From Dehalococcoidia bacterium (GTDB taxonomy: Bacteria > Chloroflexota > Dehalococcoidia > Lucifugimonadales > GCA-002694895): a stretch of 64,000 bases of DNA. The number at the start of each line of letters is the position of its first letter. Position 1 is the stretch's first letter. The position numbers and the translations under genes were made by a program. The stretch is from NCBI GenBank assembly GCA_029936815.1, contig JAPYRX010000002.1:109669-173668 (forward strand), given 5' to 3'. Below the pieces are notes generated by a model. That model made no database searches. It was not told where the DNA came from and worked only from the letters and a program-made list of their open reading frames with translations. This document shows, one piece after another, positions 27,192 through 29,414 of the stretch.

Positions 27192-27251
27192 TTTAAGTAT
27201 TTATTGTATTATTTAAATTAATATTATAATAATAACAAATTGGATGGGAAA

Positions 27252-28601
27252 ATGAATATTTCTAAAGAAGAATTAAAAAGTAAAGTAGTAGCAGAAATTG
27301 AAAAATCTAAAGAAAGGATAATTAATTTTTCAAAAGATATAGCTGAAAATGCGGAAACCGGATACCGAGAAGTAAAAACATCAAATAAAATTAAAGAAAT
27401 ATTTGACAGTATAAATCTTAAATATACTGATGGACATGCTATAACGGGAATTAAATCAGAACCTATAATAGGAAAATCAGATGGTCCCACTATTGCAGTG
27501 ATTGGAGAATTAGATGGATTGATTGTAAAAGATCATCCATTAGCAGATCCGAAAACAAACGCTGTACATGCGTGCGGGCATAATTGCCAATTGGGATCAA
27601 TGTTAGGAGCTGGAATAGGATTGCTTAATAGTAAGGCAAATGAATATTTGAATGGAAACGTAGTCTTATTTGCAGTTCCTGCTGAAGAAACTATAGAAAA
27701 CGAATTCAGAATTAATTTGATTGATGATGGTAAATTGGGATTTATGTCTGGTAAACAAGAGCTAATTAGAATAGGTTCTTTTGACGATATTGATTCTGCA
27801 ATGTTAAGCCATGCTACAACTAATGCCACTGATAAAGACTTATCGATTGGAGGAACTTCTTTAGGTCATGTGGTTAAATATGTTGAATTTCATGGTAGAG
27901 CATCACATGCAGCTGGAGCTCCTTATGCTGGAGTTAACGCTTTAAAAGCGGCAAACATAGCAATGATGGCAATGGACTTACAACGAGAATCATTCAAAGA
28001 TGAAGATAAAGTAAGGGTTCATGGTATATTAACAGAAGGTGGCACTGCTACTAATTCTATACCCTCTATAGTGAAATTGGAATGGAGAATTAGAGGGAGA
28101 ACTATTGATATAGTTAATGAAGTTAATAAAAAAATAGATAGATCATTAAAAGCAGGTGCCATGGCAATGGGAGCTAATGTTCGTATTAGATCTATAGCTG
28201 GGAATTTACCTATGTTACAAAATAAAGATATAAATAATATTTATTTTGTAAATGCAGCAAATATAGTAGGTAATAATAATGTTGTAATTCATCCTGATGA
28301 TACATCAGGGGGATCTACAGATATGGGAGATTTAAGTCAAATTATGCCTGTAATTCACCCAAGGAGTGGGGGCGCAATAGGAGCAGGCCATGGGAATGAT
28401 TATTTTATTGATGATTATTATAAATCAGTTATTAACCCAGCCAAAGCTATGGCAACAACAATTATTGATTTGTTATGGCATGAAGAAAACAAATTAAAAC
28501 AAATCATTTCAGAACATGTTCCTGTATACACAAAAAAAGAATACATCGATTTACAAAAAAGTAGAATGGGTAATGAATTTCATGAATATATGAAATCTTG
28601 A
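27252..28601 (+). CDS. M20-family amidohydrolase/peptidase
   Basis: GELD, HACGHN, VPAEE, GRASHA, GGSTDMGD. Confidence 0.9.
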   Translation: MNISKEELKSKVVAEIEKSKERIINFSKDIAENAETGYREVKTSNKIKEIFDSINLKYTDGHAITGIKSEPIIGKSDGPTIAVIGELDGLIVKDHPLADPKTNAVHACGHNCQLGSMLGAGIGLLNSKANEYLNGNVVLFAVPAEETIENEFRINLIDDGKLGFMSGKQELIRIGSFDDIDSAMLSHATTNATDKDLSIGGTSLGHVVKYVEFHGRASHAAGAPYAGVNALKAANIAMMAMDLQRESFKDEDKVRVHGILTEGGTATNSIPSIVKLEWRIRGRTIDIVNEVNKKIDRSLKAGAMAMGANVRIRSIAGNLPMLQNKDINNIYFVNAANIVGNNNVVIHPDDTSGGSTDMGDLSQIMPVIHPRSGGAIGAGHGNDYFIDDYYKSVINPAKAMATTIIDLLWHEENKLKQIISEHVPVYTKKEYIDLQKSRMGNEFHEYMKS

Positions 28602-28635
28602 TAATTTCTAAATAATTTTGAAATATAATTCTTTA

Positions 28636-28709
28636 GAAATGGAATACCCATTTCCAACACCTCCTTGATAAGAGACTAGTATAATATATATACTAGTCTC
28701 TTTTATTTT
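28636..28709 (+). ncRNA. Candidate ~70-nt small RNA with exposed anti-SD (CACCUCCUU) between two hairpins
   Basis: TATAAT at 28624-28629; 7-bp hairpin GAAATGG/CCATTTC; unpaired CAACACCTCCTTGAT; 14-bp terminator stem plus T-tract. Confidence 0.4.
28670..28709 (+). terminator. Intrinsic terminator
   Basis: AAGAGACTAGTATA-atata-TATACTAGTCTCTT followed by TTATTTT. Confidence 0.75.
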
Positions 28710-28718
28710 GGTAATTAT

Positions 28719-29297
28719 ATGAAATTGAATAAATATATTTTCCTATTATTTTTATTATTGAATATCTCTTGTTCAATACATATAGATTCAGAAATTGAAA
28801 ATAATAATACAATTAATAATGATCCTAATTCTGAATTGTATAAATTGATTAAAACAGAGGACGTGTCAAAAATTAATTTGAACGATAGATATAAAAAGAT
28901 TAGAAACAAAAACAATCTCAGTAAAGAAAAAACTGAAAACGAATTTATGGAGAGATATAAAACGAATGATTTCAAGACAATATATACTAGTAGGCCATAT
29001 ACGTTAATTTACTTATGGGAAGATTTCTGAGCAACGTGCATCTCTGCCAAACCTTCTGTGAAAGAGTTAGAAGACAAATTGAATATCAATGAAATTATTT
29101 TGTATTCAATTCAAGTTTCAAAAATTAGTGTTGGAGAACTTTTTGCAAGTTATTTGAAAAACACAAATGTGCCAACCACTTATTTAATTAATAACAAATT
29201 AGAGATTATTGATCAAAAAACTGTCACACCTGATATATGGTTTAATCTTGAGAGTAACAAAAATAATATTAAATTATTAATGGTGAGTGGGGATTAA
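28719..29297 (+). CDS. Thioredoxin-fold (TlpA/ResA-like) lipoprotein with in-frame TGA: probable selenoprotein (UxxC), 192 aa
   Basis: ORFs 28719-29030 and 29058-29297 are in one frame; read-through gives YLWEDF-U-ATC-ISAKPSVKELE; cis-Pro motif NVPTTYLIN; lipobox LNISC. Confidence 0.75.
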
Positions 29298-29305
29298 AAA
29301 ATTCC

Positions 29306-29334
29306 AAAAAAAAAGCCAGCTGATTAAAGCTGAC
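29306..29334 (-). terminator. Intrinsic terminator, minus strand
   Basis: Minus strand GTCAGCT-ttaatc-AGCTGGC followed by T9. Confidence 0.75.
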
Positions 29335-29342
29335 GTGAAACT

Positions 29343-29372
29343 ATTATAGCATGGTTAAAAAGGGTTTGTCAA
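29343..29372 (-). promoter_or_regulatory. Consensus sigma70/sigmaA promoter
   Basis: Minus strand TTGACA-N18-TATAAT with extended -10 TG (TGcTATAAT). Confidence 0.6.
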
Positions 29373-29414
29373 CCCCTCTCCCTCATAGGGACTAGTAAAC
29401 GATAAAAAAAATCT

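Follow-up and report, generated by a model that had tools for sequence, protein, structure and literature searches.

A 64,000-nucleotide (nt) stretch of a Dehalococcoidia genome, hereafter the window (GenBank assembly GCA_029936815.1, contig JAPYRX010000002.1; analyzed as genome G000, contig C33, positions 109669-173668), carries at positions 28719-29297 what is very probably one selenoprotein gene. Its product would be an exported, probably lipid-anchored thiol-disulfide oxidoreductase of the thioredoxin fold with the active site U104-A-T-C107, where U denotes selenocysteine (Sec). A preliminary description, made from the letters of the DNA, had proposed a Sec-containing protein of this thioredoxin-like kind, and the proposal is supported here by a Sec machinery in the genome, conservation of the TGA codon among relatives, independently assembled contigs, the predicted fold and a hairpin shared by the family. 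The assembly comprises 1.46 Mb in 35 contigs, is 89.7% complete and has a GC content of 30.5%.

The gene lies on the plus strand as a frame of 192 codons, with an ATG start, a lone internal TGA at 29028-29030 (codon 104) and a TAA stop at 29295-29297. Gene calling with translation table 11 yields two open reading frames (ORFs) instead, 28719..29030 (103 aa) and 29058..29297 (79 aa, GTG start); translation confirmed that these are one frame split by a single TGA at the first position of a UxxC motif, as first described. The TGA is preceded by YLWEDF and followed by ATC, so that the product reads U104-A-T-C107. U104, the predicted attacking residue, aligns with the first Cys of WCGPC, and the predicted resolving cysteine, Cys107 (codon 29037..29039), occupies an invariant column. 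The cis-Pro motif VPTTYLIN, which the preliminary description had pointed out, is located 46 codons downstream of the TGA. Within it Pro152 (codon 29172..29174, in VPT) is invariant in the family alignment and aligns to the vP of thioredoxins.

We next consider the genetic code of the organism. Profile searches of G000 recovered selA (496 bits), selB (274 bits) and selD (311 bits, its own frame interrupted by one TGA), and a selenocysteine tRNA (selC, 61 bits) that ARAGORN also reports as tRNA-SeC with anticodon tca. All four components, whose presence the preliminary description had named as a check, thus score over their curated cut-offs. Release factor 2 (RF2) is encoded as well (463 bits), and the ORFs that reach 200 codons or more when counted from ATG, 1001 in number, end in TAA (707), TGA (189) or TAG (105). 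With TGA ending 189 of 1001 long ORFs, RF2 present and the Sec machinery complete, TGA is a normal stop codon in this genome and Sec decoding is available, in agreement with the earlier statement that the code has not been globally reassigned.

Relatives of the gene retain the TGA. A six-frame search with the read-through protein in 61 genomes, G000 and 60 relatives, returned matches in 11; 15 of the 16 matches contain one TGA and the remaining one contains none. Among 17 aligned ORFs from these 11 genomes the Sec column is TGA in 16 and TGT in one (G022, YSNLCLMC). The sequences form two groups. The lipoprotein-type group consists of the window gene, orthologues in five of the seven other genomes of the genus (G002, G003, G004, G005 and G007) and one member from G053; the six-frame search found no lipoprotein-type orthologue in G001 or G006, both approximately 75% complete. 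Members of the second group are anchored by N-terminal hydrophobic helices and include a paralogue in G000 itself (C9:76805-77293). Identity to the window protein is 55, 54, 35 and 32% for orthologues, which are open across the same TGA at both levels of divergence (54-55% and 32-35%), and 18-27% for the remaining rows. Invariant columns are 104 (Sec or Cys), C107, K111, V114, L117, P152 and P171. The dipeptide between U and C is A-T here and A-E in some orthologues. The G007 orthologue was found twice (C11:17591-18142 and C18:89011-89562, loci L029 and L039) as near-identical copies, one with N bases; a duplicated contig or a strain mixture (5% contamination) is a more likely source of this doubling than a true duplication.

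Pairing of Sec with Cys at this column extends across the phylum. When a profile of 15 family sequences was searched against 401 genomes sampled across the phylum (E <= 1e-8), 50 genomes gave matches, and among the 54 matches listed 32 have one TGA and 22 have none. A simple motif search located the active site in 22 of 29 fetched loci (13 with U, 9 with C; 7 lacked the motif), and one of the Cys rows is from G098, a genome flagged as unpublished, whose removal makes no difference to the conclusion. Among 1.84 billion representative proteins searched exhaustively with HMMER, 7937 passed a threshold of E <= 0.001 and 212 one of E <= 1e-10, although many high-scoring matches are longer than ~240 aa, match in several stretches and look like generic multi-thioredoxin proteins. 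In 30 fetched representatives of ~160-200 aa, the Sec column holds W in 13 and C in 17, W being the letter that code-4 gene callers write for TGA. The Cys/TGA pairing that the preliminary description had looked for in homologues is therefore present at both depths, with 16 TGA and one TGT among close relatives and 13 U and 9 C across the phylum. The combination that it had set against its own proposal, a genome without Sec machinery and close homologues all carrying TGY, is not what we found. Atlas clusters of one Cys homologue (P0014) are automatically named 'TlpA family / thioredoxin-like', with Chloroflexota as the commonest taxon. Five further loci from a whole-contig search with the single protein (Bacteroides, Planktothrix and others) match the low-complexity N-terminus only and were set aside as chance.

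Structure prediction indicates that the window protein has a thioredoxin fold. A profile of the 15 relatives matched solved thioredoxins in the PDB with E=7e-12, in an alignment that sets U against the first Cys and VP against the cis-Pro loop. An AlphaFold2 model based on a 15-row alignment has a mean predicted local distance difference test (pLDDT) score of 83.9 and a predicted template modeling score (pTM) of 0.67, and its 10-residue blocks from 61 to 190 score 88-98. Modeled strand 94-100 leads to U104, which opens helix 105-121; a strand-helix-strand-strand-helix succession comes next, with VP152T ahead of strand 153-158. On its N-terminal side the fold is extended by ~70 residues with additional helices at 36-45, 54-80 and 85-90. 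The best Foldseek matches in the PDB are classical thioredoxins (E ~5e-6, target template modeling score 0.66-0.74).

The N-terminus points to the cell surface. The protein begins MKLNKYIFLLFLLLNISC-S, with Cys18, and the first 18 codons (28719..28772, plus strand) encode a putative signal peptide ending in a lipobox-like N-I-S-C, with Cys18 as the predicted site of the lipid anchor. Lipoboxes generally follow the rule [LVI][ASTVI][GAS]-C, and positions -1 and -2 of the window copy, L-N-I-S-C, conform to it. Relatives show SLSC, FLAC, FISC and FVSC among orthologues and ILGC in G053; all six lipoprotein-type rows have a hydrophobic N-terminus and S, A or G at -1 followed by Cys. The signal peptidase gene lspA was found in G000 over its cut-off (101.9 bits). 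On these sequence features, the window protein is probably exported and lipid-anchored at Cys18. In the paralogous group, a short basic loop (e.g. YKSK) lies between the two hydrophobic helices, which under the positive-inside rule would likewise place the C-terminal domain outside.

Decoding of UGA as Sec in bacteria calls upon a selenocysteine insertion sequence (SECIS), and the family carries a candidate within the coding region. The 63 nt from each TGA were folded, and 16 TGA-bearing sequences were aligned gaplessly (alignment A1). A recurrent hairpin begins ~22 nt past the U of UGA and spans 22-40 nt after UGA. It contains an 8-pair helix with a GUG apex (columns 29-36 with 40-47, window 29050..29068, plus strand), in which 80.4% of cells pair, as against 63.6 +/- 2.2% in shuffles, none of 500 reaching the observed value. 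The covariation score is 0.511 versus 0.185 in shuffles (again 0/500), and two-sided changes keep pairs 33-43, 34-42 and 35-41 in 5, 6 and 6 of 14 distinct sequences, respectively. In the loop, the invariant G37 and T38 are the first two bases of the GTG codon for the conserved Val. GC-rich relatives have at the same place a CCCATC-GTG-GATGGG hairpin of -7 to -16 kcal/mol.

Because the 8-pair helix was chosen from single folds of the same sequences in which it was then counted, the count leans towards it, and slid controls and a comparison of TGA with Cys forms were therefore added. With the 3' arm slid out of register, 19.6-54.5% of cells pair. The second comparison covered distinct family sequences in loci L028-L073, with 29 TGA rows and 11 Cys rows; two of the 29 probably reflect spurious motif hits, and retaining them works against an association of hairpin and TGA. 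In-register pairs number 6.4 of 8 on average in TGA forms, with a mean local minimum free energy (MFE) of -6.9 kcal/mol, compared with 3.3 pairs and -2.6 kcal/mol for Cys forms of similar GC content (0.50 vs 0.54); rank tests on pairs and MFE gave p-values of 1.7e-5 and 3e-4, although the rows are related by descent and the significance of these tests and of the shuffles is accordingly overstated. Overall, a SECIS of the family is well supported by its comparative sequence pattern. One Cys form, L069 in G086, has 6 of 8 in-register pairs (GCCCGTC-CTG-GACGGC, -6.0 kcal/mol), with the other ten at 2-4, and may represent a recent change from Sec to Cys.

The hairpin singled out in the preliminary description lies slightly further along, as CTTCTG-TGAAAGAGT-TAGAAG at 29053..29073 (plus strand), with 6 bp and the 9-nt loop UGAAAGAGU. 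It is the best local fold by thermodynamics; the spacing from the UGA to its loop is 28 nt and loop position 2 is G, as described. In G007 and G004, the nearest orthologues, the sequence does not permit this stem, and AAAUC-CUC / GAG-A-GAUUU folds instead. Excerpts of a 2026 review give the bacterial SECIS (bSECIS) model as a loop of 3-9 nt, a stem of 4-16 bp and a G in the first two loop positions, at 16-37 nt from the UGA and with an MFE <= -7.5 kcal/mol (PMC13188914). In its geometry the family hairpin agrees with the model as excerpted there. The window copy likewise conforms in the size of its loop and stem, in the G and in its distance from the UGA, which is 28 nt for the earlier hairpin and 27 nt for the conserved register, but fails in energy.

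Several results weigh against the assignment as a whole. For the hairpin, RNAalifold left unaided predicts just 3 inner pairs for the family (-1.0 kcal/mol). In the window copy the conserved register has mismatches at two of its 8 pairs (C-A at 32-44 and 35-41) and evaluates to +2.8 to +4.8 kcal/mol; the local hairpin reaches only -4.6 kcal/mol, and the 54 nt after the UGA -5.9 kcal/mol, against the limit of <= -7.5. The 63 nt from the UGA have a z score of +0.57, with 139 of 200 dinucleotide shuffles folding at least as well. The earlier hairpin thus stands in its position, spacing and G, but it is no better than shuffles and is not kept in the nearest orthologues; the helix that the family conserves lies instead at 29050-29068. 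For the protein, the single-sequence score against Pfam Thioredoxin (PF00085) is 17.7 bits with a cut-off of 23.5 (E=0.0036), and no Pfam or NCBIfam model reached its cut-off with the window protein. The N at lipobox position -3 is outside the usual rule, so that the lipobox first described is borne out by a Cys kept in 6/6 lipoprotein-type rows but is non-canonical in the window copy. The match to lgt (111 bits over 272 of 280 positions) lies 8 bits below its 118.9 cut-off. A search for DsbD/CcdA, VKOR and DsbB domains in G000, at 89.7% completeness, found none of the three and so gave no redox partner, and no DsbD_TM match over cut-off was found in 8 genomes of the genus (65-90% complete); weak DsbD_TM matches of 20-25 bits occur in the order. 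Finally, the sole contig from an RNA run (X22) spans only 29278-29394, with 10 differences, and is uninformative on expression.

The weak hairpin suggests the most serious of the competing explanations, in which the SECIS of the window copy has decayed, Sec insertion is inefficient or lost, and the gene yields mostly a truncated 103-residue lipoprotein, as an incipient pseudogene or through regulated truncation. The weakness of the local hairpin, which is no better than shuffles, the two mismatches in the conserved register and the failed MFE criterion of the bSECIS model are all as this explanation would have them. However, the lipoprotein clade of the whole genus is equally weak or weaker, with hairpins of -1.0 to -4.5 kcal/mol throughout, and retains the TGA. 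The frame downstream is open and conserved at 32-55% identity, and it shows the same balance of synonymous and nonsynonymous changes in a divergent strain (7:7) as the frame upstream (6:6; see below). Moreover, the 6 of 8 in-register pairs of the window copy fall within the range of TGA forms and exceed 10 of the 11 Cys forms. We consider decay improbable on balance, and a functional SECIS in the window copy plausible.

A recent nonsense mutation, or an error of sequencing or assembly, in an ordinary CxxC thioredoxin-like gene would equally give the two short ORFs that table 11 calls in the window. Public metagenome contigs compared over window positions 28600-29400 speak against it. A contig from a different study (X9) has zero differences from 28600 to 29172, as does one from a 2016 run (X10) from 28620 to 29176. 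In a contig from a seawater run (X12) that spans 28600-29308, there are 43 differences over the 709 nt, and the TGA is untouched. Of the 26 changed codons in this strain, 12 lie upstream of the TGA and 14 downstream, split evenly between synonymous and nonsynonymous on each side (6 and 6, 7 and 7); small as these numbers are, the halves on either side of the UGA appear from them to evolve alike, under the same constraint. With the TGA in the same column of 16 of 17 ORFs in 11 genomes, and a conserved downstream frame that is predicted to fold as the remainder of the thioredoxin domain, a pseudogene or an error is very hard to sustain.

Reading of the TGA as Trp, Gly or Cys, through an altered code or general read-through, has in its favor the full-length proteins with W that public gene callers have made, but it is scarcely credible in a genome with RF2, TGA at the end of 189 of 1001 long ORFs including the upstream neighbor (27240..28601), and a dedicated tRNA-Sec with selA, selB and selD, and in a family whose homologues carry Cys rather than Trp or Gly at the column and whose hairpin accompanies TGA forms specifically. 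Those public proteins also show what annotation makes of the gene. In a set of 5.8 billion proteins, its halves appear separately as P0004 (103 aa, 93% identity) and P0006 (79 aa, 87% identity), and full-length entries with W at the Sec site are P0002 (91% identity) and P0003 (55% identity), the latter identical to the translation of locus L029, whose DNA carries TGA. Standard annotation was predicted to split the gene, and the public sets indeed hold it as 103-aa and 79-aa pieces or as a full-length protein with W.

Taking the gene as that of a Sec-containing oxidoreductase, we propose the following route from message to activity. SelB with Sec-tRNA(Sec) would bind the hairpin and insert Sec at the UGA. 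The apex of that hairpin would be the GU of the conserved Val codon, with the codons for Lys-Pro forming the 5' arm and those for x-Leu the 3' arm. After export of the precursor, Lgt would acylate Cys18 and LspA would cleave off the signal peptide, which would leave the thioredoxin domain at the cytoplasmic membrane on its outer side. By analogy with thioredoxins and their active-site chemistry, the U104 selenolate may attack substrate disulfides or sulfenates, after which Cys107 would resolve the selenenylsulfide and a donor or acceptor would recycle the pair.

Membrane-tethered thioredoxin-fold proteins of the TlpA/ResA/CcmG (DsbE) type offer one comparison. Like them, the window protein is predicted to be exported and tethered, with a thioredoxin fold and a CxxC-type site, and Atlas clusters of its Cys homologues bear the automatic name 'TlpA family protein disulfide reductase'. 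Unlike them, it has no Redoxin/AhpC-TSA or TIGR00385 match, its best structural matches are classical thioredoxins, and its genome gave no DsbD/CcdA donor in our search. G000 does hold a Ccm (system I) set, CcmB/C/E/F/H, with no thioredoxin gene beside it. We rejected a CcmG role for the selenoprotein, since a separate Cys-type ResA/CcmG-like gene at C31:64185-64667 (82 bits to TIGR00385, 99 bits to a ResA model) makes that role unnecessary.

A closer comparison is with the thioredoxin-like selenoproteins of marine bacteria. Excerpts of the Global Ocean Sampling survey count 321 Sec sequences in Trx-like 1 and 212 in Trx-like 3, which ranks both with the most abundant families, find thiol-oxidoreductase or Trx-like character in 33 of 51 prokaryotic families, and in Table 2 equate Trx-like 1 with COG0526 and Trx-like 3 with a weak cd02950 (PMC2398784). 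Trx-like 3 is a lead for the placement of the window clade. UxxC thioredoxin, DsbA-like and thiol-disulfide isomerase-like selenoproteins are tabulated in the available parts of a Sargasso Sea study (PMC1088965), and the same UxxC kinds in those of the 2026 review (PMC13188914). As far as these excerpts describe them, the marine families resemble the window protein in the thioredoxin fold, in Sec as the first residue of UxxC, in homologues that carry Cys instead at that column, in a SECIS hairpin (a candidate one in the window gene) within the coding region just past the UGA and in a marine origin. The window clade differs in its putative lipoprotein signal peptide, its helical N-terminal extension of ~70 residues and the dipeptide between U and C, which is A-T (A-E in some orthologues) rather than G-P. 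The window gene is an ordinary member of the well-known marine UxxC thioredoxin-like kind.

Within the family, the nearest point of reference is the G000 paralogue on contig C9. The family profile scores 182 and 148 bits on the two genes, and they agree in the TGA column, the K-P-x-V-x-x-L segment and the position of the hairpin. In contrast, the paralogue has 25% identity to the window protein, two N-terminal hydrophobic helices and no lipobox, and its neighbor is a gamma-glutamyltranspeptidase gene, where the window gene has M20-type and HhH-GPD genes. On a tree of the domain, the lipoprotein clade of the genus is a separate branch (support 99/98) and, as far as searched, is restricted to one AT-rich genus. 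G053 carries a membrane-anchored (L037:882-1409) and a lipoprotein-type (L037:1402-1995) UxxC gene in tandem, with an overlap of 8 nt. The two are each other's closest relatives on the tree (support 98/98), so that in G053 a lipid anchor seems to have taken the place of the helical one in an event separate from that in the genus of the window; the tree indicates a second origin of the lipid anchor, by tandem duplication.

The genomic surroundings of the gene give no hint of a partner: the neighbors encode DUF454, M20-type, HhH-GPD, pseudouridine synthase and AnmK proteins, with the selenoprotein gene itself between the M20-type and HhH-GPD genes. Loci L029 and L031 share the M20-type, HhH-GPD and pseudouridine synthase neighbors, and L030 and L033 are flanked by ORFs of the same sizes. 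Consensus scans alone place a 14-bp terminator-like hairpin with a T run at 28670..28702 (plus strand), after the M20-type gene, and a promoter-like site overlapping it at 28665-28694 (plus strand), which suggests that the selenoprotein gene is its own transcription unit. On the minus strand, positions 29343-29372 form a perfect sigma-70-type promoter match (TTGACA, 18 nt, TATAAT, TG; 12/12) between convergent genes and aimed at the 3' end of the selenoprotein gene, and within ~10 nt of it lies a terminator-like hairpin with a T run (29315-29334, minus strand). This promoter match could be a product of chance in AT-rich DNA or could drive a very short transcript.

Neighboring genes were scanned at 22 loci (60 of 81 ORFs submitted). 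A gamma-glutamyltranspeptidase gene adjoins membrane-anchored paralogues at four of them (L035, L043, which is the C9 paralogue of G000, L066 and L072), with two distant genomes among them. At L046, L051, L062, L067 and L071, all from one family, the paralogue adjoins TPMT/TehB-like methyltransferase, metalloenzyme-superfamily and EF-G-like genes. Glutathione breakdown or methylation of sulfur or selenium compounds are possible themes of these neighborhoods. We make no claim of a glutathione-scavenging link, for which there is neighborhood only, within closely related genomes, and which the window gene, beside an M20-type gene instead, does not share; it is kept as a lead.

G000 has further candidate selenoproteins. 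A crude motif scan listed 36, most of which look like chance. Apart from selD, itself a selenoprotein (GGUGSK, C11:107306-108367, L001), the candidates are a lipoprotein with SPTUGHC and a weak AhpC/TSA match (C3:21111-21617, L083), a lipoprotein of the AhpC/TSA family with YFUGIC (68 bits; C6:8030-8599, L084), a peroxidase-related AhpD-like protein with CEYU (TIGR01926, 152 bits; C8:14430-14966, L085), a PrdB/GrdB-like protein with UPVC (C24:177479-178444, L086) and a deiodinase-like protein with TUSEC (C31:45814-46584, L087). In each of the five, L083-L087, a single in-frame TGA falls at a redox motif and is followed by a hairpin. The hairpins of these other candidates have stems of 5-8 bp, loops GGUC, AGGUC, AGGUG and GGUCG, and energies of -6 to -13 kcal/mol.

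Predicted surface selenoproteins of G000 accordingly number three of lipoprotein type (the window gene, C3:21111-21617 and C6:8030-8599) and one anchored by transmembrane helices (C9). It is conceivable, though we regard it as unlikely, that they form a Sec-based extracytoplasmic redox or antioxidant layer that takes electrons from, for example, small external thiols and is read via SECIS hairpins (-1 to -5 kcal/mol) far weaker than the accepted model. If that were so, the SelB of AT-rich streamlined genomes would have to make looser or different demands on its RNA. The window gene extends the UxxC thioredoxin-like selenoproteins by a clade with a predicted lipid anchor, and leaves knowledge of the kind otherwise unchanged. 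The family is a clean case of codons, those for Lys-Pro-x-Val-x-x-Leu, that double as protein and SECIS, and the weakening of its hairpin as genome GC falls provides a usable test set for the SECIS stability that SelB needs. Public protein sets split or truncate this gene and likely do the same to at least five further G000 candidates; with selenoprotein genes split in this way, redox and metabolic inventories of abundant marine bacteria undercount the use of selenium.

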